Made by a program: the position numbers and the translations under genes. Below are positions 8,618 to 63,081 of a stretch of DNA of 64,000 nt, piece by piece. The number at the start of each line of letters is the position of its first letter. Positions within the stretch are counted from its first letter, which is position 1. The notes under the pieces were generated by a model. That model searched no databases. It was not told the DNA's origin and was given only the letters and a program-made list of their open reading frames with translations. The stretch comes from Gemmatimonadaceae bacterium (GTDB lineage: Bacteria > Gemmatimonadota > Gemmatimonadetes > Gemmatimonadales > Gemmatimonadaceae), in contig DASUXC010000084.1 of NCBI GenBank assembly GCA_036378095.1, positions 19,805-83,804 of the forward strand, read 5' to 3'.

Positions 8618-8813
8618 CTCGCCTGTCTCGTCGTGCTCTGGCCCGGGACCGTCCCTTCCAGCATCACTGTCCCCTCGGTGGCCCGCCGAATCTAGCTCGC
8701 CCCGACGGCCCTGTCCACGCGCGGGGGCGAGCGGAACCGCTGCTCGATCATCGATGGTCAGATTCCATGCCATGACGCGGGGCTCGCGACCGCGATCGTC
8801 CGGTGGCCGCGCC

Positions 8814-8878
8814 GGGAACGGTCCACGGGAACGGTCCACGGGAACGGTTCACGGGAACGGTCCACGGGAACGGTTCAT
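8814..8878. repeat. Tandem repeat, 5 x 13 bp (GGGAACGGTCCAC; variants GGTTCAC and GGTTCAT)
   Basis: Read directly: gggaacggtccac gggaacggtccac gggaacggttcac gggaacggtccac gggaacggttcat, inside the 415-bp divergent intergenic region 8618..9031. Confidence 0.9.
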
Positions 8879-9922: not shown

Positions 9923-10082
9923 GGAATCTCGGGAATCGGGAAGCGGGAATCGGGAAGCGGGAATCGGCAAGCGAAGAGCACCGATGTGGATGGCAACGGG
10001 GCCGGCGACCGCCGGCCCCGTTGCGTTCCATGCTCGATCGCTTCCCGATTCCCGAGATTCCCTATTCCCGATTCCCGAGCTC
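9902..10082. repeat. Composite element E2 (GGGAATC family): perfect 44-bp inverted repeat around a 12-bp GC hairpin
   Basis: 9902..9945 (gagctcgggaatcgggaatagggaatctcgggaatcgggaagcg) is the exact reverse complement of 10039..10082. The left array continues with further GGGAA(T/G)C units to about 9972. Central hairpin AACGGGGCCGGC-gacc-GCCGGCCCCGTT at 9995..10022. Confidence 0.92.
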
Positions 10083-12359
10083 CTTCGCCATCTCGCTCAC
10101 GTGCGCCGCTTCGGCGTCGAGCACGGCGGCGATGCGGGCGATCTCGGTGTTCGCGGCCGTCCATTCCCCCTGCTCGATCGCCTCGCGCGCGCCGGGCATG
10201 GTCTTCACGCCGTAGCCCGTGTAGTAGCCCGGCGCGTAGAGCAGGTGGCGATACCACGGGCGGTTGGGGAGGCCACGATCCGACGTGAGCAGCCGCTCGC
10301 TGGCGAGGAGCTGCTCGTTGATCGACGCCAGCGACGCGCGGCGCTCACTGGAGCCCGCCGCCCGCGACGTGGTGTCGCTCTCCCCCGACCACGCGGCGTA
10401 CGCGCGCTCGAACCGGTCGGCGGCGTGCGCGAGCGAGTCGGCGGCGTTGTGCAGCGCGGCGAACTCGAGCCGCGGCGCCGGCGTCTCCCGCTCCGGCGCG
10501 CGCGTCGGGTCGCGGGGATCGCTCACCAGCGCGTACATGCCATCGTCGATGTCGCGGTTGCGCTGCTCGATCTCGCTCGCGCGCTTGTCGCGGAGCTGCT
10601 CCAGCTCGGTGACGTAGCGCTGCACGGTGGCCGCGAGGTTCGCGAAGCGGAACGGGAGCAGGTCGGCGTCGGCGAGACGCATGACGGCGGTGCCGACGGT
10701 CTGCGCGAGCGCGCGGCCGTAGACGAACGAGGTGTCGGCGAAGTGCGTGTACCAGTAGAAGTCGTCGTACACCGAGTGGTACACCCCGCCCCGGTCCTCG
10801 CCGCCGAAGCCGAGGTTGAGCGACGCGATGCCGAGGTGCTGCACGAAGGGCGTGTAGTCGGAGCCGGATCCGAGCGCGCCGATGGGAAGGTCGCCGCCAT
10901 CCTTCGGCGGCTCGCGGTGGTCATCGGAGGACCGGTGGACGCGGGCGCGCGCCTGGTCGCGCTTCCACACGGTGGCGCCGCTCTCCGGGTCGTCGATGTC
11001 GCGCGCCACGTCGTTGATGAAGCGCTCGAGCGTGTGCGAGCCCGACATCCCGAGGTATCCGCGGCCGTTCCCGTCCGTGTTCAGGTACGCGACCGCGTGC
11101 CGCGCCAGCTCCTCGGCGTGCGCCTCGGCCCACTCGGTCGAGCCGAGCAGCCCCGGCTCCTCGCCGTCCCACGCCGCGTAGACGATCGTGCGCTTCGGCC
11201 GCCAGCCGCTCTTGTACAGGGCGCCGAGCGCGCGCGCCTCCTCCAGCTCGGCCACGAGGCCCGAGATCGGGTCGGCGGCGCCGTTCACCCAGCCGTCGTG
11301 ATGGTTGCCGCGGACCACCCACTCGTCGGCCTCGCTCGTGCCCGGAAGCCTGGCGATCACGTCGTAGAGCGTCTTCAGGCTCCAGTCGGACTTCACGACG
11401 AGGTGCACGCGCGCGGGACCGCTCCCGCCATAGCGATACGTGATCGGCAGCCCGCCGCGCCAGCTCTCGGCCACCACGGGGCCGCCGAGCGCGGCGAGCA
11501 GCGGCTGCGCATCGCCGTACGAGATCGGGAGCACGGGGATCTTCGTGATCGTCTTCGCCTCGGCCACCGTCAGCCGCTTGGCGTCCTTCGTCGCGCCCAC
11601 GCCCGGCGTGAGCGGATCGCCGGGGTAGACCGGCATGTCCGCGACGCTGCCGCGCTGCACGCCATCGCGCGGGCGCATCGGCCCCGCGGGGAAGACGCTC
11701 CCCTCCGCCCAGCCATCATCGGCGGGGTCGGAGTAGATGAGGCACCCGACCGCGCCGTGCTCGGCGGCGACCTTGGGCTTGATGCCGCGCCACGAGCCGC
11801 CGTAGCGGGCGATGACGATCGCTCCCTTCACCGACACGCCGTGGCGCGCGAGCTCCTCGTAGTCGGCGGGGACGCCGTAGTTCACGTAGACGATCGGCGC
11901 GGTCACGTCGCCGTCGGCGGAGTAGGCGTTGTACGTGGGGAGCTGCTCGTCGTGCTGGCCGCTCGTGGGATCGGCGGCCACGGCCGGCTCGCGCAGCGCC
12001 GCGCGGAACGTCGTCGGGGCGACGAGCTCCACGACCCGCTGCTTCGGGGTGGGGAAGAGCACGTCGAAGCGCTCGATCCGCGCCTGCCAGCCGTACGACT
12101 CGAACTCCTTGCGCAGCCAGGCGGCGTTCGTGCTGTCGTACGGCGAGCCGACGTGGTGCGGACGCGCGGAGAGGGTTCGCATGGCCTCGCGCATGCGCGC
12201 GGGCTCGGGGATGGCGCGGAACTTCGTTTCCCAGCCGCGCTCGACGCGCGAGGACTCCGGCGTGAAGCCGCGCAGGGTCGAAGGATCGGTGCGGGTGGGC
12301 AGGATGGAGAGCCCGGCCAGCGCGAGCGCGAGCGAGAGGGAGTGAGCGGGAGTGTTCAT
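10062..12359 (-). CDS. M28 family metallopeptidase, glutamate carboxypeptidase II / transferrin-receptor-like
   Basis: Inner ATG (MNTPAHSLSLALALAGLSIL, signal peptide) of ORF 10062..12461. PA-domain block IVIARYGGSWRGIKPKVAAEHGAVGCLIYSDP, zinc-site blocks GNHHDGWVNGAADP and WDGEEPGLLGSTEWAE, and a C-terminal dimerisation-like region. Confidence 0.9.
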   Translation of the reverse strand: MNTPAHSLSLALALAGLSILPTRTDPSTLRGFTPESSRVERGWETKFRAIPEPARMREAMRTLSARPHHVGSPYDSTNAAWLRKEFESYGWQARIERFDVLFPTPKQRVVELVAPTTFRAALREPAVAADPTSGQHDEQLPTYNAYSADGDVTAPIVYVNYGVPADYEELARHGVSVKGAIVIARYGGSWRGIKPKVAAEHGAVGCLIYSDPADDGWAEGSVFPAGPMRPRDGVQRGSVADMPVYPGDPLTPGVGATKDAKRLTVAEAKTITKIPVLPISYGDAQPLLAALGGPVVAESWRGGLPITYRYGGSGPARVHLVVKSDWSLKTLYDVIARLPGTSEADEWVVRGNHHDGWVNGAADPISGLVAELEEARALGALYKSGWRPKRTIVYAAWDGEEPGLLGSTEWAEAHAEELARHAVAYLNTDGNGRGYLGMSGSHTLERFINDVARDIDDPESGATVWKRDQARARVHRSSDDHREPPKDGGDLPIGALGSGSDYTPFVQHLGIASLNLGFGGEDRGGVYHSVYDDFYWYTHFADTSFVYGRALAQTVGTAVMRLADADLLPFRFANLAATVQRYVTELEQLRDKRASEIEQRNRDIDDGMYALVSDPRDPTRAPERETPAPRLEFAALHNAADSLAHAADRFERAYAAWSGESDTTSRAAGSSERRASLASINEQLLASERLLTSDRGLPNRPWYRHLLYAPGYYTGYGVKTMPGAREAIEQGEWTAANTEIARIAAVLDAEAAHVSEMAKELGNRE

Positions 12360-12513
12360 GGGCGAACGCGTGGTTGAGTGGTGTCGCCAATCAACCGCTG
12401 GGGGCGGGGGCTCGCAACCGCGCGGCGGAGGCGTCGGGCGGGAGACTCGACCGGGGGGCACCCCGGGGGCGGCCCCGGAGCCACCTCGGGGCCACCCCCG
12501 GGTCGCCCCGGGG

Positions 12514-20415: not shown

Positions 20416-21300
20416 ATGAGAAGCGCACCTCTCGTCTCCGGGCGCATGGTCGCGCTCGTCTTCGCCGGCGCCGTTGCCGCGGCCTGTGGCAGCGACTCCT
20501 CGACACAACCCAAGACCGTCGCCAGCGTGACCGTGAGTCCCGCGAAGGACACCGTCCAGACGGGCGAGACGGCGCAGTTCACTGCCGAGCTCAAGGACGC
20601 CAACGGCAACGTGCTCACGGGGCAGTCGGTGACGTGGACCTCGAGCGACACGGATGCGGCCCCCATCTCCGCGTCCGGCGCGGTGGCGGCGATCCTCCCC
20701 GGGACGTCGACGATCACCGCCACCGCCGGGGGCGTCTCGAACACCGCCGATCTCACCATCCTCGCCGGTGCCGCGCACCAGCTCTCCGAGGGCGAGCGGA
20801 TCGGCGACTCCACCTTCGCCCCCGGCGACGGCCCCAACGGCGGGCAGGGCGACCCGGTGGGCAGCGTGCCGTGCGCCGCCGATGCGGGGCAGCCGGTGGA
20901 ACACCGGCACTCGCACCTCACGCTCATCGCCAACGGGCAGCAGATCGCGATCCCGCTCGCCATCGGCGTGATGAACCCCATCTACAACGACACCAACGAG
21001 GCGTTCGCCGGCACGTGCTTCTACTGGCTGCACACGCACGACCAGACGGGGATCATCCACGTGGAGCCGTTCGAGGGGGGACACACGTTCACGCTCGGTG
21101 ACTTCTTCGACATCTGGGGGCAGCCGCTGACGGCGAGCGGTGTAGCGGGGTACAGCGGGAGCGTGGCGGCGTACGTGGACGGGAAGCGCTTCACCGGCGA
21201 TCCGCGCTCGATCGTGCTCGCCGATCACCAGCAGATCACGCTCGAGGTGGGAGCTCCCCTCGTGGCGCCGCCGATCTACACCTGGCCCAATGGCTATTAA
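20416..21300 (+). CDS. Lipoprotein with Big_2 (bacterial Ig-like) domain and a His-rich C-terminal domain of unknown function
   Basis: Inner ATG of ORF 20251..21300. Lipobox LVFAGAVAAAC-GS. Big_2 block VASVTVSPAKDTVQTGETAQFTAELKDANGNVLTGQSVTWTSSD. C-terminal EHRHSHLTLIANGQQIAIP...CFYWLHTHDQTGIIHVE...FTLGDFFDIWGQPL. The 3' end overlaps the kaiC start by 11 nt. Confidence 0.75.
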   Translation: MRSAPLVSGRMVALVFAGAVAAACGSDSSTQPKTVASVTVSPAKDTVQTGETAQFTAELKDANGNVLTGQSVTWTSSDTDAAPISASGAVAAILPGTSTITATAGGVSNTADLTILAGAAHQLSEGERIGDSTFAPGDGPNGGQGDPVGSVPCAADAGQPVEHRHSHLTLIANGQQIAIPLAIGVMNPIYNDTNEAFAGTCFYWLHTHDQTGIIHVEPFEGGHTFTLGDFFDIWGQPLTASGVAGYSGSVAAYVDGKRFTGDPRSIVLADHQQITLEVGAPLVAPPIYTWPNGY

Positions 21301-22738
21301 GGCACCAACCGGCATCCGCGGTCTCGACGAGATCACCGGCGGTGGGCTGCCGGCCGGGCGCCCCACGCTGGTGTGCGGCGGTCCGGGCTGCGGGAAGACG
21401 CTCCTGGCGATGGAGTTTCTCGTGCGCGGCGCCACGGATGCCGGCGAGCCCGGAGTGTTCGTCGCGTTCGAGGAGACGGTGGCCGACCTCGCGGCGGACG
21501 TCGCGTCGCTCGGCTTCGACCTCGACCAGCTCATTGCCCAGGGGAAGCTGCGCGTCGACCACGTGCGCGTGCTGCGCTCCGAGATCGACGAGGCCGGAGA
21601 CTACGACCTGGAGGGGCTGTTCGTCCGCCTCGGCCACGCGATCGACAGCATCGGCGCGAAGCGCGTGGTGCTCGACACGATCGAGACGCTCTTCTCCGCC
21701 TTCTCCAACGAGGCCATCCTGCGCGCCGAGCTGCGCCGGCTGTTCGGATGGCTCAAGGAGCGCGGCGTGACCGCGGTGATCACCGCCGAGCGCGGAGAGG
21801 GCACGCTCACCCGGCAAGGGCTGGAGGAGTACGTCTCCGACTGCGTGATCCTGCTCGACCACCGCGTGAACGGGCAGGTGAGCACCCGGCGCCTTCGCGT
21901 GGTGAAGTACCGCGGCTCCTCGCACGGCACGAACGAGTTCCCGTTCATCATCGAGGACGGCGGGCTGACGGTGCTCCCGATCACCTCGGTCGGCCTCTCG
22001 TACGGTGTGAGCGAGGAGCGCATCTCGACGGGGGTGGCCGGGCTGGATGACATGCTCGGCGGCCTCGGCTTCTACCGGGGGAGCAGCATCCTCGTCTCCG
22101 GCAGCGCCGGCACGGGAAAGTCGCTGCTGGCGGCGCACTTCGTGGACGCCGCCTGCCGGCGCGGCGAGGGCGCGCTGTACTGCGCGTTCGAGGAATCGCC
22201 GGCGCAGATCATGCGCAACGCCCGCGCGACGGGGGTGAGGCTGGCGGAGCACGTGGAGCGCGGCCTGCTTCGATTCCACGCGGTGCGCCCCACCATGTAC
22301 GGGCTCGAGGCGCATCTGGCCCGGATCGTGAAGGACATCGACATGTTCCGGCCGCGCGTCGTGGTGCTCGATCCCCTCACGGCGTTCCTCGGCGCCGCCA
22401 TGCAGCCCGATGTGCTCGCGATGGCGACCCGTCTCATCGACTCGCTCAAGCTCGTCGGGATCACGGCGATGATGACGAGTCTCAACGGCCGTGACGAGAC
22501 GGTCCTGGGGGAGAGCGACGTCGGCGTCTCATCGCTGGTGGACTCGTGGATCTGCCTCCGCGATGTCGAGCGGCACGGTGAGCGCCACCGCGGCCTCTAC
22601 GTTCTCAAGTCCAGGGGCATGGCGCACTCCAACCGGATTCGCGAGTTTCTCATCTCGAGCCAGGGGATCCGACTGGGCGAACCCAACCCGGGTGACGAGC
22701 GGGAAGGGTGGCAAGTGGAGTTCATCGAACGGCAATGA
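21290..22738 (+). CDS. kaiC: Circadian clock protein KaiC homolog (double RecA-like ATPase)
   Basis: 482-aa [24 protein letters not shown]. Walker A GGPGCGKT (CI) and GSAGTGKS (CII). Catalytic EE pairs VAFEE and CAFEE. C-terminal [44 protein letters not shown]. Confidence 0.92.
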
Positions 22739-22793
22739 CACCGCCGCCGCTCACGCCGTGCGCGGCGCGGCCACCCTTTTTCGAGTGCGCTTC

Positions 22794-23123
22794 ATGAGCA
22801 CATCCAAGGCGCCCGGCGCGGCGCCCACCCTGTCGGAACCCGCGGTCGAGCAGTGGGATCTGCGGCTCTACGTGGCCGGGCAGTCTCCGCGCTCGCTCGC
22901 CGCGTTCGCGAACCTCAAGCGGCTGTGCGACGAGCACATTCCCGGTCGCTATCACATCGAGGTGATCGATCTCGTCGCCCACCCGCAGCTCGCGGTCAGT
23001 GACGAGATCGTCGCCCTTCCGACGCTGGTCCGGCGGCTGCCGCCGCCGATCAGGAAGCTCATTGGCGACCTGTCGAACGGCGAGCGCACGCTCGTCGGCC
23101 TCAACATTCGCCCTCGCGCGTGA
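22794..23123 (+). CDS. kaiB: KaiB homolog (copy 1)
   Basis: Inner ATG of ORF 22491..23123. [74 protein letters not shown] is the canonical KaiB pattern. Confidence 0.9.
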
Positions 23124-23151
23124 CCAGCGCGCCACCACGGCGGACGATCTC

Positions 23152-23493
23152 ATGCCCGAGCAGCCTGTCAGCGTCACCGAGGAGTTCGAGCGCGCACTCC
23201 GGGGCGTGCAGCCGAACGCGCGGTACGTGCTCCGGCTGTACGTCGCCGGCTCGAGCGCGCGGTCGCTCCGCGCCGTGGAGAACGTGCAGCGGCTGTGCGA
23301 GGCGTACCTGCCGGGGCGCTACGACCTCGAGGTCATCGACATCTACCAGCTCCCCTGGCTCGCCGAGGCGGGGGAGGTGGTGGCCGCGCCGACGCTGGTG
23401 AAGGAGCTCCCGCTTCCCCTCCGCCGCGTGGTCGGCGACCTCGCCGACGAGGGGCGCGTGCTGATCGCGCTCGGCCTCAGGGTGGCGGCATGA
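23152..23493 (+). CDS. kaiB: KaiB homolog (copy 2)
   Basis: Inner ATG of ORF 22999..23493. YVLRLYVAGSSARSLRAVENVQRLCEAYLPGRYDLEVIDIYQLPWLAEAGEVVAAPTLVKELPLPLRRVVGDLA. The stop overlaps the next ATG (ATGA). Confidence 0.9.
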   Translation: MPEQPVSVTEEFERALRGVQPNARYVLRLYVAGSSARSLRAVENVQRLCEAYLPGRYDLEVIDIYQLPWLAEAGEVVAAPTLVKELPLPLRRVVGDLADEGRVLIALGLRVAA

Positions 23494-25190
23494 GCACGTC
23501 GAGCGACGAGCCCGTCGCGGGATCGACGATCGCGATGGCGGATGCGGCGGCGCGCCCGAACGGCCGGGAGGACAGCCGGCCGGCCGATCCCGGGCTGGAT
23601 GCGCTGCGGATGCGCCTCCAGGAGGCGGAAGAAACGCTGCGGGCGATCCGCCTGGGGGAGGTGGACGCGGTCGTGGTGCAGGGACCGGACGGCCCGCGCA
23701 CCTACACGCTCGTCACCGCCGACCAGGTGTATCGGCAACTCGTCGAGCAGATGCGCGAGGGGGCGCTCACCTTGAGCACCGCCGGCGTCATCCTGTACTG
23801 CAACGCGCGCTTCTCGGCGCTCCTCGGCCGGCCGCACGCGAGCATCGCCGGGCGGCGGCTCCGCGAGCTCGCCGATGCGGGCGATGTGGATCGCCTGCAG
23901 ACGCTGCTCGATGCCGCCGCGACCGGGAGCGCGAGCGGCGAGGTGCGGCTCCGGCGCGGCGACGGCACCCCCATCCCCATGCTCCTCTCCCTCAGCGTGC
24001 TCCGCGCGGAGGCGTTCAACGGGATCTGCGCCGTGGCCACCGATCTCACCGACCGGGATCACCGCGAGCAGCAGGCGGCGGACGAGCGGCTCACGCGGGC
24101 GATCCTCGAGCACGCCGCCGAGGCGATCGTGCTGTGCGATGCCGACGGGCGGATCGCGCGCGCCAACCGGATCGCGGTCGAGCTGAGCGGGGAGGATGTG
24201 GTGGGTCGCCGCTTCGAGGAGGCGTTTCCGGTGGGGATCACGTTCGCCGAGCTCACGGCGCCGACGCACGCCTCGCTCGGCGAGCGCCGCGATGGAAGCT
24301 TCGTGCGGGGCGATGGCCGCCGGGTCCACCTGCTCGTGGGAGCGCGTCCGATCGGTGGCGAGATCGACATCGACGGCGACCGGTGGGTGGTGACGCTGGC
24401 CGACGTCACCGCGCGGCGCGAGGCCGAGGCGGCGCGCGACCGGCTGCTCCAGGCCGAGCGCGCGGCCCGCGCCGACGCGGAGAACGCGAGCCGGGCGAAG
24501 TCGGACTTTCTCGCCGTCATGAGTCACGAGCTCCGGACGCCGCTCAACGCCATCGCCGGCTACGCGGAGCTCATGCAGCTCGGCGTGCCGGAGCCGGTGC
24601 CCGAGGCGCACCGCCCGTATCTCGTCCGGATCCAGGCGGCGCAGCGCCACCTCCTCGCGCTCATCAACAATGTTCTCAACCTCGCGAAGCTCGAGCGGGG
24701 TCACGTGGAATACCAGGTGGAGCCCGTGGCCGTGAGCGAGCTGTGGACCACGGTGGAGGCGCTGGTGTCGCCGCAGATCCACGGCAAGGGGCTCGAGTAC
24801 CGGAGCACGCCGTGCGATCCGTCGCTCGTGGTGATGGTGGATCGCGAGAAGGCGGTGCAGATCCTCCTCAACCTGATCGGCAACGCGGTGAAGTTCACGC
24901 CGGCCGGCGGCCGGGTGACGCTCGATGCCGATCATCTGGGCGACCGGGTGAGCATCCGGGTGCGCGACTCGGGGATCGGGATCGCCCCCGAGAAGCTGGC
25001 ATCGGTGTTCGAGCCGTTCGTGCAGATCGACCGAACGGTCGCGGGTACGAGAGAGGGGGTGGGGCTCGGTCTCTCCATCAGCCGGGAGCTCGCGCGCGGG
25101 ATGGGCGGCGATCTGACCGCGCAGAGCGTGCCGGGTGAGGGGTCGGAGTTCTGCCTGGTGCTGCCGGCGGGGGGAACGGCTCGGGAATAG
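23490..25190 (+). CDS. Cytoplasmic PAS-PAS sensor histidine kinase (candidate Kai output/input kinase)
   Basis: Inner ATG of ORF 23295..25190. Coiled-coil plus IRLGEVDAVVV, two PAS-like blocks, H-box MSHELRTPLN, N-box LLNLIGNAVKF, G-boxes DSGIGI and GVGLGLS. No TM segment. The stop TAG lies in the first GGGAATA unit of E4. Confidence 0.9.
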   Translation: MSTSSDEPVAGSTIAMADAAARPNGREDSRPADPGLDALRMRLQEAEETLRAIRLGEVDAVVVQGPDGPRTYTLVTADQVYRQLVEQMREGALTLSTAGVILYCNARFSALLGRPHASIAGRRLRELADAGDVDRLQTLLDAAATGSASGEVRLRRGDGTPIPMLLSLSVLRAEAFNGICAVATDLTDRDHREQQAADERLTRAILEHAAEAIVLCDADGRIARANRIAVELSGEDVVGRRFEEAFPVGITFAELTAPTHASLGERRDGSFVRGDGRRVHLLVGARPIGGEIDIDGDRWVVTLADVTARREAEAARDRLLQAERAARADAENASRAKSDFLAVMSHELRTPLNAIAGYAELMQLGVPEPVPEAHRPYLVRIQAAQRHLLALINNVLNLAKLERGHVEYQVEPVAVSELWTTVEALVSPQIHGKGLEYRSTPCDPSLVVMVDREKAVQILLNLIGNAVKFTPAGGRVTLDADHLGDRVSIRVRDSGIGIAPEKLASVFEPFVQIDRTVAGTREGVGLGLSISRELARGMGGDLTAQSVPGEGSEFCLVLPAGGTARE

Positions 25191-25283
25191 GGAATCGGGA
25201 ATCGGGAATCGGGAATCGAGAATCGGGAATCGAATGCGCGAGGAGCGTGCTGGCGATTCCCGTTTCCCGATTCCCGAGCCGTT
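25176..25283. repeat. Composite element E4 (GGGAATC family) between convergent genes
   Basis: Left array of 7 heptads at 25183..25231 (gggaata gggaatc x4 gagaatc gggaatc). Right arm cgattcccgtttcccgattcccgagccgt (25254..25282). The outer 13 nt (acggctcgggaat / attcccgagccgt) are a perfect inverted repeat. Confidence 0.88.
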
Positions 25284-27031
25284 CAGAATCCCACCGCCAC
25301 CCCGTCCCCCCGCGAGTCCGCGCCTCCCTCGAGCACGCCGGTGTCCGCGTGCACGCGGATCATCTGGGCGTGTCCCATGTCGGAGGACCAGTCTTCCACC
25401 ACCCGCACGCGATGGCCGCGGCGGCGAAGCTCGCGCGCGACCGCGTGCCCCACGCGTCCCTCCAGCCACAGCAGCTCGCGCGGCGAAGCGAGCGTGCGCC
25501 CCATCACCCATCGCGGCGCGTCGATCGCGCGCTGCACGTCGTGCCGCATGTCCACCAGGCGCGTGATGAGCGCCGAGTGCGTTTGCGGCTGTCCGTTTCC
25601 TCCCATCGTCCCGAACGCCGCCCACGGCGCACCTCGCTCGAGCGCGAGCGCCGGGGAGAGCGTGTGGAACGGTCGCTTCCCCGGCGCGAGCACCCCGGAG
25701 GCGCGCGCGTCGAGCGAGAAGAGCGCGCCGCGATTCTGCAGCAGCACGCCCGTGTCCGCCGCCACCTCCAGGCTTCCGAACGCCAGGTAGATGCTCTCGA
25801 TCGCCGACACCACCAGTCCGTCGGCGTCCACGACGGTGAAGGCGCACGTGTCGCCGCGCGTGCCGCAACCGGCGCCCGCGTCCACGCCTCGCGGCGCGGC
25901 GCGCGGGATCCCCGGCGCCAGATCCGCCGCGGCGATCGCCGCGGCGGGCCGAATGAGCCGGCGCCGCTCCGCCGCATAGTGCTCGTCGAGCAGCCGCGCG
26001 AGGGGAGCCTGCACGAACCGCGGGTCGGCGCACCACGCATCGCGGTCGGCGTAGGCGAGGCGCGCGGCCTCGGCCTGGTAATGGTAGTAGTCGGCCGAGG
26101 CATCCCCCCACGCGGCGACGTCGAACCCCTCGAGCAGCGCGAGGATCTCGAGCGCGGCGAACCCCTGCGAGTTCGGCGGCATCTCCTGGACCGTGATGCC
26201 GCGGTACGAGGTCGCGATCGGCTCGGTCCACTCCGCGCGGTACGCGGCGAGGTCGGCGGCCCGGAGGGGGGAGCCGAGCGCGGCGACGTCGCGGCACGTG
26301 CGCTCCGCGAGCTCCCCATCGTAGAAGGCGCGCGGCCCCTCGCGCGCGATGCGATCGAGCGTCGCGGCGAGGGCGGGCCGAGCGAGCGGCTCCCCCAGGG
26401 CCGGTACCCGTCCGCCCGGCAGGAACTCGCGCGCCGCGCTCGGGTGTTGGCGGATCGGCTCGGCGCTCGAGGCGAGCGCGCGGGCGAGCGAGCGTCCCAC
26501 GGGCACGCCCTCCCGGGCCCAGCGAACGGCGTCGGCGAGGAGCTCGCCCCAGGCGAGGCGGCCGAACCGCTCGTGCGCCGCGCGCCAGCCATCCACGGCG
26601 CCGGGCACGGTGAGGGTGGCGAGCGCGCCGCGCTCGGGGATGCGCCGCCCGCGCCCGCGCGCCGCGTAGTAGTCAGGCGTGGCGAGGCGCGCGGCCGGGC
26701 CGCTCGCGTTGAGGGCGAGCGTACGAGCGCTCCGCGGGTCGTGAACGAGCCAGAAGCCGTCGCCCCCGATCCCGGTCATGTGCGGGGACGTCACGCCGAG
26801 CGCGGCGGCGATGGCGATCGCCGCATCCACGGCGCTGCCGCCCACCCGCAGGACTCGGAGCCCGGCCGCGCTCGCCAGCGCGTGCGGCGAGGCCACCATC
26901 GCCGTGGGGGCGAACACCGGGGCGCGAGGGGTGACGAGCGCGGCGGTGCCGCGGCGAGCGCGCGGGATGGTCACGAGGCACAAGGTACGGCTCGCCAGGG
27001 GAGATGCCAATGCATCTGTCCATCTGGTCAT
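25283..27031 (-). CDS. ggt: Gamma-glutamyltransferase family protein
   Basis: 582-aa ORF. MVASPHALASAAGLRVLRVGGSAVDAAIA, TGIGGDGF, nucleophile-Thr block GDTCAFTVVDADG, TMGGNGQPQ. The start may be an internal Met. Confidence 0.85.
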   Translation of the reverse strand: MTRWTDALASPLASRTLCLVTIPRARRGTAALVTPRAPVFAPTAMVASPHALASAAGLRVLRVGGSAVDAAIAIAAALGVTSPHMTGIGGDGFWLVHDPRSARTLALNASGPAARLATPDYYAARGRGRRIPERGALATLTVPGAVDGWRAAHERFGRLAWGELLADAVRWAREGVPVGRSLARALASSAEPIRQHPSAAREFLPGGRVPALGEPLARPALAATLDRIAREGPRAFYDGELAERTCRDVAALGSPLRAADLAAYRAEWTEPIATSYRGITVQEMPPNSQGFAALEILALLEGFDVAAWGDASADYYHYQAEAARLAYADRDAWCADPRFVQAPLARLLDEHYAAERRRLIRPAAAIAAADLAPGIPRAAPRGVDAGAGCGTRGDTCAFTVVDADGLVVSAIESIYLAFGSLEVAADTGVLLQNRGALFSLDARASGVLAPGKRPFHTLSPALALERGAPWAAFGTMGGNGQPQTHSALITRLVDMRHDVQRAIDAPRWVMGRTLASPRELLWLEGRVGHAVARELRRRGHRVRVVEDWSSDMGHAQMIRVHADTGVLEGGADSRGDGVAVGF

Positions 27032-27179
27032 GAAGTGACCTGCCGCCGACCGGTGGCGGCAGTATGTTGGAACGGGGCCTCGAAAATGGCGTCATGCAGC
27101 CGCCGCTCGTCCGTTCGCGCGACGCGAGGTACCCGGGCACGATCCCGCTCGACTGCATCGCCGACCACGGAGCCCGCCG

Positions 27180-29435
27180 ATGCTCGACGCGACCGACGCG
27201 CTGGACCTGGGTCCGGATGCCGTGATCGTTCTCGACACGGAGTGGCGCTGCACGCTCGTGAACGCCGCCGCCGAGCGTCTGCTCGGGAAGACGCGGGAGG
27301 AGTGCACCGGTCGGACGCTGTGGGAGATCGCCAGCCCGTGGCTCGGGGAGGCGGAGGCGCGCGCGCTCCGGCGCGTGATGGAGGAGCGGACCACCGCCGC
27401 GTTCGACTGGCGCGACGCGCCGAACGGCCGGTGGCTCGACGTGCGCGTGGCGGCCGACCGCCGCGGGATGGTGATCACCGGACGCGATGTGGGCGAGCGC
27501 CGGCGCGCGCAGGACGCGCTCATCGCGAGCGAGCGGCACCTCCGCGCGATCCTGGAGACGCAGCCGGAGGGGGTGATGCTCGTCGGACACGACGGGCGCA
27601 TCCTCCAGATCAATCGCGCCGGGCTCGCGCTGTTCGAGGCGCCGTCGCCGGCATCGGTGCTCGGGCTCACCGCGGGCACGTTCGTGACACCCGAGCACCT
27701 CGACTCCTACGCGGCGGCGCACGAAGCCGTGCTCGCCGGCGAGAGCAGCACGCAGGAGCTGGAGATCGAGACGCTGCGCGGAACGCGGCGGTGGCTGTCG
27801 GTGAGCTCGGTACCGTTGCGCGATGCCGCGGGGGGGATCGTCGCCATGCTCTCGATCGCCCGCGACATCACCGGCCGCAAGCTCGCCGAGGAGGCGCTCC
27901 GGGCGAGCGAGGAGCGATACCGCCTCGTGACGCGGGCGACGAAGGAGGTGGTGTACGACTGGGACCTCCGCACCAACGCGCTCGCGCTGAGCGATGCCGT
28001 GTTCTCCCGGTTCCGGTACGATCCGGGCAGCGTGCGCCCCGAGTACTCGTGGTGGGAGGAGAACGTGCACCCGGAGGACCGCGCGCGGGTGACGCGCGGG
28101 CTGGAGCGCGTGATCGCCGGTGGTGGCGAGGTGTGGGAGGATGAGTACCGCTTCCGCCGTGGCGATCGCACCTGGGCCACGGTCGCCGGAAGCGGCTACG
28201 TGATGCGCGATGCGCAGGGCGCGCCGGTGCGACTCGTCGGCACGATCCGCGACCTCACCGCGCGCAAGGCGCTCGAGGAGCAGCTCCGGCAGGCGCAGAA
28301 GCTGGAGGCGGTGGGGCGGCTCGCCGGCGGGATCGCGCACGACTTCAACAACATTCTGACCGCCATCTCGAGCAACGCCGAGCTCGCCCGCGCGATCGTC
28401 CCGCGAGGGAGCCCGGCGCGCGAGGATCTGGACGAGATCCGCCGCGCGATCGCGCGCGGCTCGGCGCTCACGCGGCAGCTCCTCGCGTTCGGGCGCCGGC
28501 AGGTGCTGCAGCCGCGCGTGCTCGACCTCAACGAGGTCGTCCTGGGCGCCGAGCGGCTGCTCACGCGCCTCGTCACCGAGGACATTCAGATCACCCTGCA
28601 GCTCGACCAGGAGCTGTGGCCCGTGCGCGCCGATCCCGGGCAGCTCGAGCAGGTGCTCATGAACCTCGTGGTGAACGCCCGCGACGCCATGCCGCACGGC
28701 GGGCTGCTGGTGATCCACACGTCGAACGCGACGATCGACGAGCCGGTGCAGGGCGTCGGCCTCGTGGTGGAGGCGGGCGACTACGTGCGGCTGGAGGTGC
28801 GCGACTCCGGCGTGGGGATGGACGCCGCGACGCGCGCGCGCCTGTTCGAGCCGTTCTTCACCACCAAGGCGCACGGGCGCGGTACGGGACTCGGCCTCGC
28901 CACGGTGTACGGGATCGTCGAGCAGTCAGGCGGGATGATCGAGGTGCAGAGCGAGCCGGAGCGCGGGAGCGCGTTCTGCATCCTGCTCCCGCGGGCGGAC
29001 CAGATCGAGGGGGAGGAGGCGCAGCGGTCCGGGCTCACGGTGCCCGAGCGGCGCCCCTCCGAGACGGTACTCCTGGTGGAGGACGAGGAGGCGGTGCGCT
29101 CGTCGCTGCGCCGCCTGCTCGAGCGAAGCGGCTTCCGGGTGGTCGAGGCGCGGGACGGCCTGGAGGCGCTGGAGGTGTGGGAGCGCGAGGGCGCGGAGGC
29201 GGGCGTGGACCTGGTGCTGAGCGACGTGGTGATGCCCCGCCTCGGCGGGCGCGAGCTGCTCGAAGAGCTGCGCTCGCGCGCGCCCGGCGCGCGGGTGCTG
29301 CTCATGTCGGGGTACACGGCGGACACGCACGCCGTGTCGGAGCTCCTGGGCACCGGGGCCGCGCTCATCGAGAAGCCGTTCGCGATCGAGGTGCTGCTCG
29401 CGCGGGTCCGCCAGATGCTCGGCAAGAGCGCCTGA
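27180..29435 (+). CDS. Hybrid sensor histidine kinase (multiple PAS, HisKA, HATPase, receiver)
   Basis: 751-aa ORF. 3-4 PAS-like blocks, H-box GGIAHDFNNILT, N-box NLVVNARDAM, DSGVGM, GTGLGLA, then receiver VLLVEDEE...DLVLSDVVMP...EKPF. Confidence 0.9.
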   Translation: MLDATDALDLGPDAVIVLDTEWRCTLVNAAAERLLGKTREECTGRTLWEIASPWLGEAEARALRRVMEERTTAAFDWRDAPNGRWLDVRVAADRRGMVITGRDVGERRRAQDALIASERHLRAILETQPEGVMLVGHDGRILQINRAGLALFEAPSPASVLGLTAGTFVTPEHLDSYAAAHEAVLAGESSTQELEIETLRGTRRWLSVSSVPLRDAAGGIVAMLSIARDITGRKLAEEALRASEERYRLVTRATKEVVYDWDLRTNALALSDAVFSRFRYDPGSVRPEYSWWEENVHPEDRARVTRGLERVIAGGGEVWEDEYRFRRGDRTWATVAGSGYVMRDAQGAPVRLVGTIRDLTARKALEEQLRQAQKLEAVGRLAGGIAHDFNNILTAISSNAELARAIVPRGSPAREDLDEIRRAIARGSALTRQLLAFGRRQVLQPRVLDLNEVVLGAERLLTRLVTEDIQITLQLDQELWPVRADPGQLEQVLMNLVVNARDAMPHGGLLVIHTSNATIDEPVQGVGLVVEAGDYVRLEVRDSGVGMDAATRARLFEPFFTTKAHGRGTGLGLATVYGIVEQSGGMIEVQSEPERGSAFCILLPRADQIEGEEAQRSGLTVPERRPSETVLLVEDEEAVRSSLRRLLERSGFRVVEARDGLEALEVWEREGAEAGVDLVLSDVVMPRLGGRELLEELRSRAPGARVLLMSGYTADTHAVSELLGTGAALIEKPFAIEVLLARVRQMLGKSA

Positions 29436-29700: not shown

Positions 29701-30348
29701 ATGCGGAAGGACGTATTCACCGGCGCCGTGCTGGCCCTGGCGTTGGCGACGGGAGCGGCGACGGCGGGAGCCCAGTCGCGCTCCGGCACGATGATGGAGA
29801 TCCAGCCCGCCACCAGCAAGCTGTGGATCGAGGGCACGTCGTCGCTGCACGACTGGAGCTGCACGGCGGGAACGGTGAACGGCTCGGTGGAGCTGGATGC
29901 CGCCTACTCCACGCTGAACCTCCAGACGAACCCGAAGATCGCGAAGACGGTGGCCATCAGCGTCCCCGTGAAGGAGATGAAGTGCGGGCACGGGAAGATG
30001 GACGGCAACATGTACAAGGCGCTCCGGGCCGACGAGTTCCCGACGATCGAGTACAAGCTCGGTGGGTACGACGTGACGCCGCAGGCGGACGATCCCGCTT
30101 CCTTCGTGATGCACACGCGCGGCACGCTCACCATCGCGGGGCAGACGAAGGACGTCCAGTTCGACATCACGGCGCACCGCGCGCCGAACGGCGAGGTGAA
30201 GGTGCAGGGGAGCCAGCCGATCGTGATGACGGACTACGACGTGAAGCCGCCGAAGGCGATGCTCGGCACGATCAAGACGGGGAAGACGGTGACGGTGAAG
30301 TTCGACCTGCTGCTGGCGCCGGCGGCGGCGAAGGTGGGGGGGCGGTAG
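29701..30348 (+). CDS. YceI-like periplasmic protein (paralog)
   Basis: Inner ATG (MRKDVFTGAVLALALATGAATAGAQ), preceded by GGAGAG, of ORF 29452..30348. WIEGTSSLHDWSCTAGTV...VKEMKCGHGKMDGNMYKALRADEFPTIEYKL...GTLTIAGQTKDVQF. Confidence 0.8.
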   Translation: MRKDVFTGAVLALALATGAATAGAQSRSGTMMEIQPATSKLWIEGTSSLHDWSCTAGTVNGSVELDAAYSTLNLQTNPKIAKTVAISVPVKEMKCGHGKMDGNMYKALRADEFPTIEYKLGGYDVTPQADDPASFVMHTRGTLTIAGQTKDVQFDITAHRAPNGEVKVQGSQPIVMTDYDVKPPKAMLGTIKTGKTVTVKFDLLLAPAAAKVGGR

Positions 30349-30350
30349 TG

Positions 30351-30498
30351 GCCGGGGGCCGGGGGCCGGGGGCCGGGGGCCAGGGAGTGGAGGAGAACGT
30401 CGAGTATGGAATGCGACACGGGGCCGGCAGTTGCCGGCCCCGTGTCGCTCGATCTCCATTCTCGCGCACCCCGCACCCCGCGCCCCGCACCCCGCGCC
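30351..30498. repeat. Composite element E5: (GCCGGGG)5 array, 15-bp hairpin, (GCACCCC/GCGCCCC)4 array
   Basis: Left heptads at 30351..30385. Hairpin CGACACGGGGCCGGC-agtt-GCCGGCCCCGTGTCG at 30414..30447. Right heptads at 30466..30498, abutting the stop of the minus-strand gene. Confidence 0.85.
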
Positions 30499-31077
30499 TC
30501 ACCGCCGCGCGAGGTACTCCCGGTACGCGTCCGGATACACCGCCACGTGGAAGTGCGCCGGGTGGTGCTCCTCGGTGGCGTCCACGACGCCCCGACGCTC
30601 GAGCACGAGGAGCGTCTTGCGCAGCCAGCGCCGGCACTTGCCCCGCTTGGAGCGGCGCAGGTCGATGGCGATCCCGGTCGGGTGCACGGAATGGTCGCTG
30701 GCGTTCACCGGCTGCACCGATTCCGGGCGCACGGCGCTCGTGACGACGAGCGGCTCGCCGCATCCGCGCCGGTACTGGGCGGCGAGACGGCGCACGAAGG
30801 TGCGCGTCTCCGGGGCCACGTAGGGGAAGCTCACCTCGTGCAGCACGTAGTCGCGCCCGGGGTGGAGGCGAACGAGGCGACCCTCGTGCACCGCCCGGCG
30901 CACCTCGCGCGCGGTGTGCGTGAACGAGTAGTCATGCGCGACGGCGTAGTGCCACACGCGCTCGACGCTGCGGTGCGAGCCGTGCAGCGATTGGGCGCCC
31001 GCCGCCGGAGGGGCGATGACGAGCGCGGCGATGATCGCGGCGGGGGGGAGAAGCGGGGAGAGACGACGCACGGACAT
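30499..31077 (-). CDS. Secreted protein with peptidase-M15/Hedgehog-type zinc-site-like motif (function uncertain)
   Basis: Inner ATG (MSVRRLSPLLPPAAIIAALVIAPPAAGAQS, signal) of ORF 30499..31347. VVTSAVRPES...SVHPTGIAIDL...EEHHPAHFHV resembles the LD/DD-carboxypeptidase fold. Confidence 0.55.
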   Translation of the reverse strand: MSVRRLSPLLPPAAIIAALVIAPPAAGAQSLHGSHRSVERVWHYAVAHDYSFTHTAREVRRAVHEGRLVRLHPGRDYVLHEVSFPYVAPETRTFVRRLAAQYRRGCGEPLVVTSAVRPESVQPVNASDHSVHPTGIAIDLRRSKRGKCRRWLRKTLLVLERRGVVDATEEHHPAHFHVAVYPDAYREYLARR

Positions 31078-41313: not shown

Positions 41314-41386
41314 GGGGAATCCTGTGAGGAGGTGGCACAAGATTCACCGGATGTTTAGCGGAGTCAACGGTTGGGGGGGAGGTTGC

Positions 41387-41547
41387 CGTCGGCCATCGGC
41401 TCTCGGCTCTCGGCCATCGGCTCTCGGCCATCGGCTCTCGGCTTGGGGCACACGCCGAGAGCTCTCTATGCTGGGCCGGTAGCCGAGAGCCGATGGCCGA
41501 GACCCGACAGCCGCGTCCTCCCGAGCGCCGATGGCCGAGAGCCGCCT
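41387..41547. repeat. Composite element E6 (CGGCTCT/CGGCCAT heptad family, core in + orientation)
   Basis: 8 heptads at 41387..41442 (cgtcggc catcggc tctcggc tctcggc catcggc tctcggc catcggc tctcggc). Core GGCACACGCCGAGAGCTCTC at 41447..41466. Complementary heptads (gccgaga gccgatg gccgaga ...) at 41482..41547. Confidence 0.88.
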
Positions 41548-41566
41548 CTTCGCTACCGCCGCTCTC

Positions 41567-48876: not shown

Positions 48877-48880
48877 GGAA

Positions 48881-48997
48881 GTGGGGAATCGGGAAGCGGG
48901 AATCGGGAATCGGAAGTATGGGCGGGAACGCGGCGCCGGTCGACCACGCCCCACCGGATCCCCTCGGCTCCCGATTCCCGATTCCCGATGCTTTCCC
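48881..48997. repeat. Composite element E7 (GGGAATC family) in a divergent intergenic region
   Basis: Left heptads gggaatc gggaagc gggaatc gggaatc at 48884..48911, starting 8 nt from the ATG of the minus-strand gene. Right arm ggctcccgattcccgattcccgatgctttccc at 48966..48997. Confidence 0.82.
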
Positions 48998-49185: not shown

Positions 49186-50166
49186 ATGAACACGCTCACT
49201 CTCGAGACGATGGCGCCGAGCCGCCGCGCCCGCCCGTCGGGCTCGTGGCGTTCGACCGGCGATCCCGAGCGCGACCTGCTCGAGCGGGAGATGGCGGGGC
49301 ACTACCAGGTGGTGCGCCTGCTCGGGCGCGGGGGGATGGGGGCGGTGTATCTCGCGCGGGACGTCGTGCTGCACCGGCACGTGGCGATCAAGGTGCTGCG
49401 GCGCGATCTCCTGGGGCGCGACGAGTCGCGCGAGCGCTTCCGCCGGGAGGCGCGGCTCTCCGCGCAGCTCAGCCATCCGGGGATCGTTCCGATCCACGAG
49501 TTCGGCGAGTCGCCGCGCCTCATGTACATGGTCATGCGCTACGTCTACGGCGAGTCGCTCGGCGAGCGGCTCCGGCGGGAGGGGCGCATCGCGGCCCCGG
49601 ACACGAGGGAGATTCTCGCCGGTCTCGCCGCCGCGCTCGAGTACGCGCACGCGCAGGGAGTGGTGCACCGCGATCTCAAGCCGGAGAACGTGCTCCTCGA
49701 TCGCGAAACGGGGCGCGTGGTGCTCGCCGACTTCGGGGTGGCGACGCGGCGCACGTGGGACCCCGTCCGCTCGGAGCTGCGAAAGGCGTTCGGGACACCG
49801 CACTTCATGTCCCCCGAGCAGGCCATGGGAGAGGTGGATCTCGACGGGCGCAGCGACCTGTACGGCCTCGGCGTGCTCGGCTTCCTCATGCTCTCGGGCC
49901 GACTCCCCTTCCGTGGGGAGACGTTCGCCGAGATCACCGCGCAGCACGTCTCGCGCGAACCGCCCCAGCTCTCGCCGCTCGCCCCGGACGCACCGCGCGC
50001 GCTGATCGAGGTGATCGGCCGCTGCCTCGAGAAGGACGCGGCGAAGCGGTGGCGGAGTGCGGGGGAGTTGCGCGAGGCGTTGGACGGAGTGGGGCGGAGA
50101 AGGTGGTGGGGAGTGGTGGTTGGAGCGTGGAACGGCAGAGGCGGGTGTGGCGTGAGGAACGCGTAG
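49186..50166 (+). CDS. Ser/Thr protein kinase (kinase domain only)
   Basis: 326-aa ORF. GRGGMGAVY, VAIKVL, HRDLKPENVLL, ADFG, GTPHFMSPEQ. The last ~20 codons and the stop are encoded by repeat element E8. Confidence 0.85.
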   Translation: MNTLTLETMAPSRRARPSGSWRSTGDPERDLLEREMAGHYQVVRLLGRGGMGAVYLARDVVLHRHVAIKVLRRDLLGRDESRERFRREARLSAQLSHPGIVPIHEFGESPRLMYMVMRYVYGESLGERLRREGRIAAPDTREILAGLAAALEYAHAQGVVHRDLKPENVLLDRETGRVVLADFGVATRRTWDPVRSELRKAFGTPHFMSPEQAMGEVDLDGRSDLYGLGVLGFLMLSGRLPFRGETFAEITAQHVSREPPQLSPLAPDAPRALIEVIGRCLEKDAAKRWRSAGELREALDGVGRRRWWGVVVGAWNGRGGCGVRNA

Positions 50167-50245
50167 GCGGTTGTGCGTGGGTGTGCGACCCCACGCTCCA
50201 TGCCCTACGCCTTCCTCACGCCACACCCGCCGTTCGCCGTTCCAC
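50127..50245. repeat. Composite element E8 (GTGGCGTGAGG family) between convergent genes
   Basis: Left arm gtggaacggcagaggcgggtgtggcgtgaggaacgcgtagg (50127..50167). Right arm 50204..50245, whose reverse complement is gtggaacggcgaacggcgggtgtggcgtgaggaaggcgtagg. Inner hairpin GCGTGGG-(8 nt)-CCCACGC. Confidence 0.8.
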
Positions 50246-51264: not shown

Positions 51265-51400
51265 GCTCGGGATGTACGGGTCGGGTGCAATCTATAACAA
51301 CGGCGCCGTGCCGCGGCGCGGGATCTCCGTGCATGACGCGCGCGCGCGTGGGTCGTCAGCAGAGAGACGGGGCGGTCGGCGCTCGCCCCTCGGGAAGACG

Positions 51401-51500
51401 CGGCTGTCGGCTCTCGGCTCTCGGCCATCGGTGACTGCCCCGCGTAGCGAGCTCCCGGCGTGTGCCGTAGCCGAGAGCCGAGGCCCGAGAGCCGACAGCC
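51401..51500. repeat. Composite element E9 (CGGCTCT/CGGCCAT family, core in - orientation)
   Basis: Heptads ctgtcgg ctctcgg ctctcgg ccatcgg at 51404..51431. Core at 51447..51466 (reverse complement GGCACACGCCGGGAGCTCGC, 18/20 identical to E6). Complementary heptads ccgagag ccgaggc ccgagag ccgacag at 51471..51498. Confidence 0.88.
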
Positions 51501-51612
51501 GGGTCTTCGCCCCGTCGCTCGTGGTGAGTTTTCCGTCCCCCGTCATCCGAAGTCCGATTGCCGGTACGCGATCGGACGAGCAACTTCGCTGGCCCACGCG
51601 GGTACCTGTAGG

Positions 51613-53865: not shown

Positions 53866-53965
53866 TCTTCCCGGGCGCCGGGGCGTAGATTCGGCGATCC
53901 CGCGCCCGGCGTGCCGCGCCCCGCGCCGCGCGCCCCTCGCGCCATCCCGCACCCACGCGCCCCGA

Positions 53966-62659: not shown

Positions 62660-62690
62660 GGGTCGGTGGGTCGCGGGGGCCGGTTCCTGG

Positions 62691-62880
62691 CGGTCGGTTC
62701 TCGGCTCTCTGCTCTCGGCTCTCGGCTCTCGGCTCTCGGCTCTCGGCTCTCGGCTCTCGGCCATCGGCTCTCGGCTAAAGTCCCGCACGGAGAGCTCTCG
62801 GGGTGTGCCGCAAGCCGAGAGCCGAGAGCCGATGGCCGATGACCGATGGCCGATGGCCGATGACCGATGGCCGAGAGCCG
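62691..62880. repeat. Composite element E10 (CGGCTCT/CGGCCAT family, core in - orientation), the largest array in the window
   Basis: 12 heptads at 62691..62774 (ctctcgg x8 with variants). Core at 62790..62809 (reverse complement GGCACACCCCGAGAGCTCTC, 19/20 identical to E6). 9-10 complementary heptads (ccgagag, ccgatgg, ccgatga) at 62815..62880. Confidence 0.92.
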
Positions 62881-63033
62881 CTCTCCAAGGGCGGAAGCTA
62901 ATCGGCCGCGATCGCCGGGCAATCGGCGAGCGCGGCGGGGGTGTTACCCGGGCGTGGGCACGTGCATCCTTGAATGTGCTTCGAATGTGCTTCCCGTCGT
63001 CCACGTGAGACCAGATGCCCTCGGCCCCCGCAC

Positions 63034-63081
63034 GGGCCGAGAGCCGAGCCGAGAGCCGAGGACCGCCCGTTCCGGGCGGTC
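63034..63081. repeat. Solo half-array of the same heptad family plus a hairpin
   Basis: gggccgagagccgagccgagagccgagg, followed by GACCGCCC-gttcc-GGGCGGTC (63061..63081), just upstream of the RBS and ATG at 63104. Confidence 0.5.

Follow-up and report, generated by a model that had tools for sequence, protein, structure and literature searches.

Three intergenic hairpins, E6, E9 and E10, lie within 22 kb of a 64-kb window of DNA from a soil bacterium represented by a Gemmatimonadaceae metagenome-assembled genome (MAG), the window being the whole stretch of 64,000 nucleotides that was analysed (G+C content 72.6%). The proteins encoded in the window have their closest counterparts in Gemmatimonadaceae MAGs. 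The question raised by these elements is why they share an oriented core of 20 nt. An initial annotation had proposed that the core is a recognition site for a protein or an RNA. Comparison of the copies with one another and with related genomes suggests that E6, E9 and E10 are paralogues, probably descended from a single palindromic repeat specific to this lineage. That the core serves as a recognition site is less likely, and the evidence bearing on this role is weighed below.

Each element is a hairpin of 120-200 nt with the core at its apex and with arms composed of CGGCTCT/CGGCCAT heptad arrays (Table 1). Arrays with a period of 7 nt were detected by TRF at 41396-41443, 51401-51425 and 62694-62776, together with their complementary arrays. 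The second array of each element runs convergently on the opposite strand and renders the element capable of stem-loop formation, as indicated by the inverted repeats of the window (I1-I17) and by the predicted folds. L-type arrays read CGGCTCTCGG and R-type arrays read AGCCGAGAGCCG. The arms of the three elements are 71-90% complementary and their unit composition differs between the two sides, which points to independent slippage of each side. The whole element is a quasi-palindrome centred between GAG and CTC of a GAGCTC hexamer, with a well-kept left apex half and a decayed right half; on the + strand of E10, CCCGCACGGAGAGC and TCTCGGGGTGTGCC adjoin at this centre. A mini hairpin built from the same heptads, E11, is located about 130 nt from E10. 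On the - strand of E11, an L-array is followed by CGTGCGGG and then by GGCCGAGGG, and the 8-mer CGTGCGGG is also present in the post-core spacer of E10. E11 shows that heptads and spacer can occur without the core, and it fits a modular build of the elements.

Table 1. Positions of E6, E9, E10 and E11 and of their parts within the window.
Feature	Position	Strand	Basis
E6, whole inserted element, ~196 nt	41371..41566	+	spacer comparison with L123
E6 L-arm, CGGCCAT/CGGCTCT heptads, ~8 units	41385..41443	+	TRF, period 7/14/21
E6 core GGCACACGCCGAGAGCTCTC, GGCACAC + inner R-type GCCGAGAGC + inner L-type GCTCTC	41447..41466	+	
E6 post-core spacer TATGCTGGGCCGGT, variable among copies	41467..41480	+	alignments
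E6 R-arm, AGCCGAG/ATGGCCG units, then decayed CCGACAG CCGCGTC CTCCCGAG, also in E9	41481..41547	+	TRF and alignment
E9 hairpin, within ~195 nt of lineage-specific sequence	51391..51511	-	L123 spacer comparison; RNA fold
E9 core GGCACACGCCGGGAGCTCGC, palindrome broken at paired positions 12/19	51447..51466	-	
E10 hairpin	62686..62890	-	TRF, inverted-repeat search, folding, orthologous spacers
E10 arrays, only 71-80% complementary	62694-62776 and 62813-62880		
E10 core GGCACACCCCGAGAGCTCTC	62790..62809	-	
E11, core-less mini hairpin, same heptads as the E6/E9/E10 arms	63018..63061	-	TRF 63036-63060

A search of the window with the degenerate 20-mer GGCACACSCCGRGAGCTCKC returned exactly three matches, at the core positions of Table 1, and no additional match was found in the window when up to three mismatches were allowed. 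One hundred dinucleotide-preserving shuffles yielded no exact match. The three sites and strands given by the initial annotation were recovered exactly, and so was the polarity that it described: on its own strand, each of the three copies consists of an L-type array (CGGCTCT/CGGCCAT)n, the core and a complementary array, in this order. Several of its measurements had to be revised. Pairwise identity of the cores is 17-19 of 20 positions rather than 18-19, with three differences between E9 and E10; the gap between array and core is 2-3 nt instead of 3-4 nt, and the less conserved stretch on the 3' side of the core spans 13-15 nt instead of 15-30 nt. The starts of the E6 and E9 cores (41447 and 51447) are exactly 10,000 nt apart, which is treated as a coincidence.

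The core had also been described as a non-repetitive module containing a palindrome, and both descriptions apply only in part. A palindrome of 10 nt is present in E6 and E10 (GAGAGCTCTC), whereas the corresponding sequence of E9 (GGGAGCTCGC) is palindromic at GAGCTC only. The two private changes of E9, A12 and T19 to G and G, hit the paired palindrome positions 12 and 19, and the symmetry is lost. Non-repetitive sequence is confined to GGCACAC, while core positions 8-20 are heptad-derived. Positions 8-16 correspond to GCCGAGAGC, a unit of the R-array, and positions 15-20 to GCTCTC, a unit of the L-array, so that 13 of the 20 core bases constitute an inverted junction of arm heptads in which GCCGAGAGC overlaps GCTCTC. 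The palindrome can therefore be understood as the head-to-head junction of an inner R unit and an inner L unit. The hexamer GAGCTC is not rare in the window (49 sites versus about 35 expected), which rules out an avoided or restriction-related site. Element E2 starts and ends with GAGCTC (9902 and 10077), as had been noted, and these are merely six further bases of the E2 inverted repeat.

As both GCCGAGAGC and GCTCTC can be built from heptads, the three cores might be thought to have formed separately at each site, through slippage or chance within heptad arrays. This origin is effectively refuted and retains next to no probability. The unique GGCACAC and the exact arrangement around it recur three times and were never produced by shuffling, which confirms that the core exceeds chance and slippage; E6 and E9 have further specific decayed units in common; and other inverted CGGCTCT pairs, such as those at the loci L027, L041 and L065 in other genomes, enclose unrelated centres.

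The kinship of the copies extends past the core. E6 and E9 are colinear and gap-free over 67 nt beyond it, and both contain the decayed units CCGACAG, CCGCGTC and YTCCCGAG. In the unique outer block, E6 and E9 differ at 2 of 29 positions, compared to 2 of 20 positions in the core. Because the outer block is as conserved as the core, common descent of recent copies suffices to explain the latter. In an alignment of the three copies, only 3 of the 20 core columns are variable versus 9 of the 14 columns of the following spacer. This difference hints at some constraint on the core or at a hypermutable spacer, and a variable spacer fits the data at least as well as a constrained core, since the outer block of E6 and E9 is kept equally well.

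The low column variability of the core and its fixed polarity relative to the arms have a second possible explanation, namely that the core is a sequence-specific protein site, recognised either by a mobilising enzyme (RAYT/HUH-like, or another nuclease or recombinase acting at the hairpin tip) or by a DNA-binding protein positioned between the arms. Such a site is rather unlikely. The conservation of the core does not surpass that of the outer block, E9 lacks the intact palindrome that would be expected of a site bound by a dimer, and the greater part of the core is heptad-derived. By inspection, an IHF site in the core or spacer was rejected, as the consensus WATCAANNNNTTR (WATCAA-N4-TTR) is absent, and a sigma-54 promoter in the core was rejected because the GG-N10-GC spacing is not observed.

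Comparison with related genomes indicates how the elements came to occupy their present positions. The closest available relative at the E6/E9 region, L123 (GCA_035760785.1), is fully syntenic in this region and encodes a Sua5 protein with 79% identity, and it contains neither E6 nor E9. The spacer between the genes for an M28 peptidase and a DUF3857 protein comprises 58 nt in L123 versus 253 nt in the window. In L123, the stop codon is directly adjacent to a conserved TTGACT...GGTGAATCTT block; in the window, E6 separates exactly these two as an insertion of about 196 nt. Likewise, the spacer between sua5 and a lipoprotein-like gene comprises 157 nt in L123 and 349 nt in the window, and the additional ~195 nt hold E9. 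For E10, three independent relatives with an 83% identical mutY-like protein were available (L124, L125 and L126/127). Their orthologous spacers measure 247-279 nt, compared to 445 nt in the window, and contain no heptad hairpin. The core is absent from the syntenic relatives, which also weighs against a protein site. At the E6 junction with L123, between TGA and TTGACT, neither a clear target-site duplication nor a clear terminal motif was found. A 100% identical short-read contig of 1165 nt from Logan ends at 51380, at a distance of about 10 nt from the E9 hairpin, an assembly break of the kind to be expected next to a repeat.

L123 possesses a heptad hairpin of its own at 7420-7554, in which GGGACGC/GGGATTC units face CGATTCC; in the matching spacer of the window, a short CCCGCGC array (53899-53940) is all that is found. 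Turnover of heptad elements between lineages is evidently fast.

The genomic settings of the three elements differ. On the - strand, the M28 peptidase gene ends at a stop codon at 41567, and E6 fills the space from there to the promoter-like TTGACT block belonging to the DUF3857/transglutaminase-like gene (start at 41313). E9 is flanked by the divergent sua5 (start at 51264, - strand) and lipoprotein-like (start at 51613, + strand) genes. E10 separates a conserved promoter-like block (62895-62922) from the start of the mutY-like gene (62659, - strand); this block, TTGCCC-N16-TAGCTT, is conserved in L126 and is a presumed promoter. According to Pfam, the neighbours are unrelated housekeeping genes, encoding DUF3857/transglutaminase-like, M28 peptidase, Sua5 and mutY-like HhH-GPD glycosylase proteins; for the right-hand neighbours of E9 and E10, no Pfam family was returned. 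If transcribed, E6 would be part of a 3'UTR with its core in antisense, while E10 is probably part of a 5'UTR with its core in sense; E9, between the conserved proximal blocks of two divergent genes, is probably untranscribed. Three different transcriptional settings and unrelated neighbours speak against a single specific function. GC skew stays positive throughout the window, and the + and - cores therefore also differ in their orientation relative to replication.

One regularity of these settings favours a protein site: when the core is read 5' to 3', a diverging gene start is found 123-300 nt on its 5' side in all four instances (E6, E9, E10 and the metagenomic locus L116, described below). 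Among the 36 window proteins scanned with Pfam, however, there is no transposase, RAYT or integrase, and no candidate enzyme for such a site.

An action at the RNA level would have to rely on the folding of the elements, which is predicted to be very stable. RNA fold energies of the three hairpins range from -84 to -135 kcal/mol, with z-scores between -6.3 and -10.7. For the two strands, the values are -121 and -128 kcal/mol in E6 (z -9.8 for -121), -84.5 and -86.5 kcal/mol in E9 (z -6.3 and -7.7) and -134.6 and -133.8 kcal/mol in E10. The strands of the three elements differ by only 1-7 kcal/mol and show no G-U asymmetry; such equal folding of both strands, as predicted here, characterises DNA palindromes rather than strand-specific RNAs. 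The element centres display no significant fold of their own (z -0.5 to -2.2). A test for compensatory changes, which the initial annotation had suggested as a sign of RNA structure, identified one covarying pair in a four-sequence alignment; it resides in the arms, and none was found in the centre. The centre of E6 may alternatively fold into two adjacent hairpins, the first consisting of the L-arm end, a GGCACAC loop and the inner R unit, and the second of the inner L unit, a spacer loop and the start of the R-arm.

The predicted stability would be compatible with a U-tail-less terminator, an mRNA-stabilising hairpin, a 5'UTR regulatory hairpin or a small RNA with the core as its loop. REP-like hairpins are known to stabilise upstream mRNA, and the placement of two elements would suit such functions: E6 extends from directly behind a stop codon to just short of the following promoter-like block, and E10 is found between the promoter-like block conserved in L126 and a start codon. 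Most heptamer repeats of Xanthomonas are transcribed, according to a published survey (PMC4692102). An RNA-level role nevertheless appears quite improbable in view of the folding results for centres and strands and of several searches. No U-tract (Rho-independent) terminator was detected at E6, E9 or E10, the only match being an unrelated small hairpin at 51303-51319, and no sigma-70-like consensus promoter coincided with any of the three elements in a scan. Rfam 15 returned no match at the gathering score in the whole window, and permissive scans of E6 and E10 retrieved only sub-threshold, generic miRNA-precursor hairpins on both strands. The presence of the core in antisense in an E6 transcript, in sense in E10 and probably in no transcript at all in E9 is inconsistent with an RNA function of the core sequence. 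The step from a shared core to a protein- or RNA-recognition site is consequently not supported: common descent suffices to explain the core, the element centre does not covary, and the palindrome is broken in E9.

A scan of GTDB species genomes with (CGGCTCT)2.5 produced at least 114 loci; the source genome was not among the matches listed. Many of the listed matches are located in Gemmatimonadaceae, Methylomirabilota and Vicinamibacterales MAGs, and among them the arrays either stand alone or surround unrelated centres, in many cases hairpins resembling terminators (L027, L041 and L065). None of the 114 listed heptad-array loci carries the core, neither with up to 4-5 substitutions nor in a profile search. 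The absence of the core from other copies, which the initial annotation had named as an argument against its own proposal, is thus observed in part, in the 114 listed array loci and in the core-less E11 beside E10, and it also speaks against a protein site. At positions 3790-3910 of L027, a Gemmatimonadaceae MAG locus, about 11 TATCAGC units in tandem come immediately after a small CGGCTCT/AGAGCCG hairpin, such that two heptad families abut.

A scan of JGI metagenomes with the core itself identified seven loci, five of which are unique. The core match of L117/L118 is located inside an ORF and was taken as chance. L115/L120, L119 and L121 contain neither heptad arrays nor a hairpin, match only the core part of the profile and were likewise read as chance. 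The only related-looking locus is L116, in which the core occupies the apex of an intergenic hairpin of 150 nt, between an FtsX-type permease gene and a DHFR-like gene on a different, Gemmatimonadota-like contig. Named homologues of this DHFR-like gene belong to the Longimicrobiaceae (Gemmatimonadota); positional orthologues of the locus were not found, and the DHFR-like homologues lack conserved synteny. The L116 core has its own 7-bp stem, GCACACC/GGTGTGC, and the arms are not regular heptad arrays.

The recurrence of the core at a hairpin apex without regular heptad arms counts in favour of a protein site and could mean that the core predates the arms and is under stronger constraint than they are. 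L116 provides the hint for a more specific proposal, in which GGCACAC-N4-GAGCTC at the tip of an extruded hairpin would be the putative recognition or cleavage site of a Gemmatimonadota mobilisation system, and the SSR arms would grow around it as a by-product. If this were true, E6, E9 and E10 would represent a new, REPIN-like class of mobile elements whose simple-sequence arms can expand, but the proposal is unlikely to be correct.

Taken together, the three elements are best explained, with fair though incomplete confidence, as three paralogous copies of a lineage-specific, non-autonomous, REPIN/MITE-like palindromic intergenic repeat of about 120-200 nt. At the sequence level, homology of the copies extends past the core, orthologous sites in relatives lack them, their contexts differ, and the core is in part heptad-derived; the modelled folds assign a strong hairpin potential to both strands. 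The heptad arms would lengthen, shorten and swap unit types independently via replication slippage. The 20-nt core would be the better-kept left apex half, consisting of the 7-nt loop GGCACAC and the head-to-head junction of an R and an L unit, and it would have been inherited, already asymmetric, from the common ancestor of the copies. The core may in addition have been homogenised by gene conversion via the homologous arms, and independent selection at each site would not be required. The copies could have spread by transposition-like insertion or by arm-mediated recombination. The elements would be mainly selfish or neutral DNA, with incidental effects if they are transcribed, for example as hairpins in the 3'UTR (E6) or the 5'UTR (E10). 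Several observations count against this explanation: the lack of a mobilising enzyme among the 36 scanned proteins and of a target-site duplication or terminal motif at E6, the small number of copies (three in the 64-kb window), the lower variability of the core relative to the following 14 nt, and the presence of the core in L116.

If descent from one palindromic repeat is the correct explanation, E6, E9 and E10 add one more selfish or neutral family of palindromic intergenic repeats, now in the poorly studied Gemmatimonadaceae. Such a family of heptad hairpins would explain assembly breaks in metagenome-assembled genomes, would caution annotators against spurious ORFs and long UTR hairpins at these elements and would offer a natural example of one element that is subject to both SSR slippage and palindrome maintenance. 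Greater weight would attach to the family if the core were the handle of a mobilising enzyme. To our knowledge, it is largely unknown how REP-like elements outside Proteobacteria spread.

The window contains further repeats and one conspicuous gene cluster. At 30344-30500, between convergent genes, an array of five GGCCGGG units and one of CGCACCC/CGCGCCC units flank a strong terminator-like hairpin, CGACACGGGGCCGGCAGTTGCCGGCCCCGTGTCG; the two arrays are not mutually complementary, which implies that heptad arrays can flank a hairpin without pairing. A near-perfect 13-nt tandem repeat, CGGGAACGGTCCA (8813-8874; 4.8 copies, 95% identity), is found between divergent cytidylate-kinase-like and aldo/keto-reductase genes, and an 11-nt repeat, GGGGCCACCCC (12454-12513; about 5.4 copies, 71% identity), at a two-gene junction. 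At 50129-50231, where a protein-kinase gene and sua5 converge, a tandem duplication of 26 nt overlaps with an inverted repeat of 42 nt (86% complementary, 8-nt loop). The inverted repeat is probably a hairpin of the bidirectional terminator type. The region 21290-29435 encodes a KaiC-like ATPase (21290-22738), followed by two multi-PAS histidine kinases, the second of which is a hybrid with a receiver domain; it may be a clock-like or signalling cluster unrelated to the core.

Several known families of bacterial repeats resemble the elements described here in part. REP and REPIN elements are mobilised by RAYT transposases, for example in Pseudomonas, E. coli and Stenotrophomonas (SMAG). They occur in tens to hundreds of copies per genome, their arms have a fixed sequence and length, and RAYT is a Y1/HUH transposase. 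E6, E9 and E10 resemble REPINs as short, dispersed, non-coding intergenic palindromes with inverted halves, a long hairpin and lineage-specific presence or absence. They differ in that their arms are expandable SSR arrays, and no RAYT gene was found among the 36 window proteins scanned with Pfam. A GTAG-type REP head is inconsistent among the copies, with GTAGCCGAG present in E6 and E9 only. When the two halves are compared in the manner of a REPIN, the element is a quasi-palindrome about the centre of GAGCTC with SSR arrays as halves, of which the left apex is better conserved.

In the BIME-1/RIP (RIB) elements of E. coli, inverted REPs enclose a conserved, oriented central motif that binds IHF. 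The combination of inverted arms with an oriented, conserved central module is shared by the elements of the window, but their core lacks the IHF consensus and their arms are of a different type. MITEs such as Correia, ERIC and Nezha are non-coding insertions of 100-250 nt with terminal inverted repeats, located in UTRs and promoter regions. The similarity to MITEs comprises the non-coding insertion, the foldability of the whole element and the placement in UTRs or promoter regions. In contrast to MITEs, the inverted repeats consist of SSR arrays instead of TIRs bound by a transposase, and the E6 junction shows no target-site duplication; we know of no parent IS for E6, E9 and E10. A literature search retrieved no paper on palindromic repeats of Gemmatimonadetes, and the RepRanger survey of REPs mentions neither Gemmatimonadetes nor heptamers.

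Intergenic heptameric SSRs and inverted pairs of them are described for Xanthomonas (GGGAATC) and Nostoc in the survey by Rehm et al. (2015, PMC4692102). As reported there, a Xanthomonas genome contains about 185 GGGAATC arrays and about 70-75 convergent inverted heptamer pairs, which are capable of stem-loop formation and have no known function, and the arrays vary among close relatives. The same text cites work of 2007 in which heptamers were reported to be in excess among bacterial SSRs, with longer runs more frequent in large genomes of high G+C content. The elements of the window share with the Xanthomonas and Nostoc heptamers the intergenic 7-nt tandem arrays, variable in unit number and sequence between relatives, and with the Xanthomonas pairs the arrays that face each other on opposite strands and can form a stem-loop. 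In both, prominent arrays are not kept at the same genes, as exemplified by the absence of E6, E9 and E10 from three orthologous sites.

The Xanthomonas heptad GGGAATC itself forms inverted pairs at three places in the window, 9901-10083, 25174-25284 and 48880-48992. The first is a GGGAATC-family hairpin with two 45-nt arms that are 100% complementary, including irregular units. Between these arms is a second hairpin, GC-rich and terminator-like (about 9995-10027). Two convergent genes both end inside mirrored TAGGGAA variant units of the arms, with TAG stop codons at 9920-9922 (+ strand) and 10062-10064 (- strand). The perfect symmetry of this hairpin suggests that one arm was copied from the other by template switching rather than produced by independent slippage. 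The GGGAATC/GATTCCC pairs at 25174-25284 and 48880-48992 have unrelated centres, and the former is located between convergent genes. The latter pair starts 3 nt upstream of the ATG of a D-serine-dehydratase-like gene (48877, - strand), which leaves no room for a ribosome-binding site.

The differences from the Xanthomonas repeats concern units, host, placement and centre. Unlike the GGGNATC units of Xanthomonas, CGGCTCT and CGGCCAT lack a G3 tract, and the G-quadruplex rationale does not apply to them; in the window, G-rich units of this type are confined to the separate GGGAATC elements. The host is a Gemmatimonadaceae MAG, and two of the three elements are located between divergent genes, a class that is under-represented in Xanthomonas. 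Finally, E6, E9 and E10 have in common a unique centre of a kind that the consulted sections of PMC4692102 do not mention. An apical, unique and oriented module within an inserted unit is what these elements add, on this reading of PMC4692102, to the already known architecture of inverted heptamer pairs.
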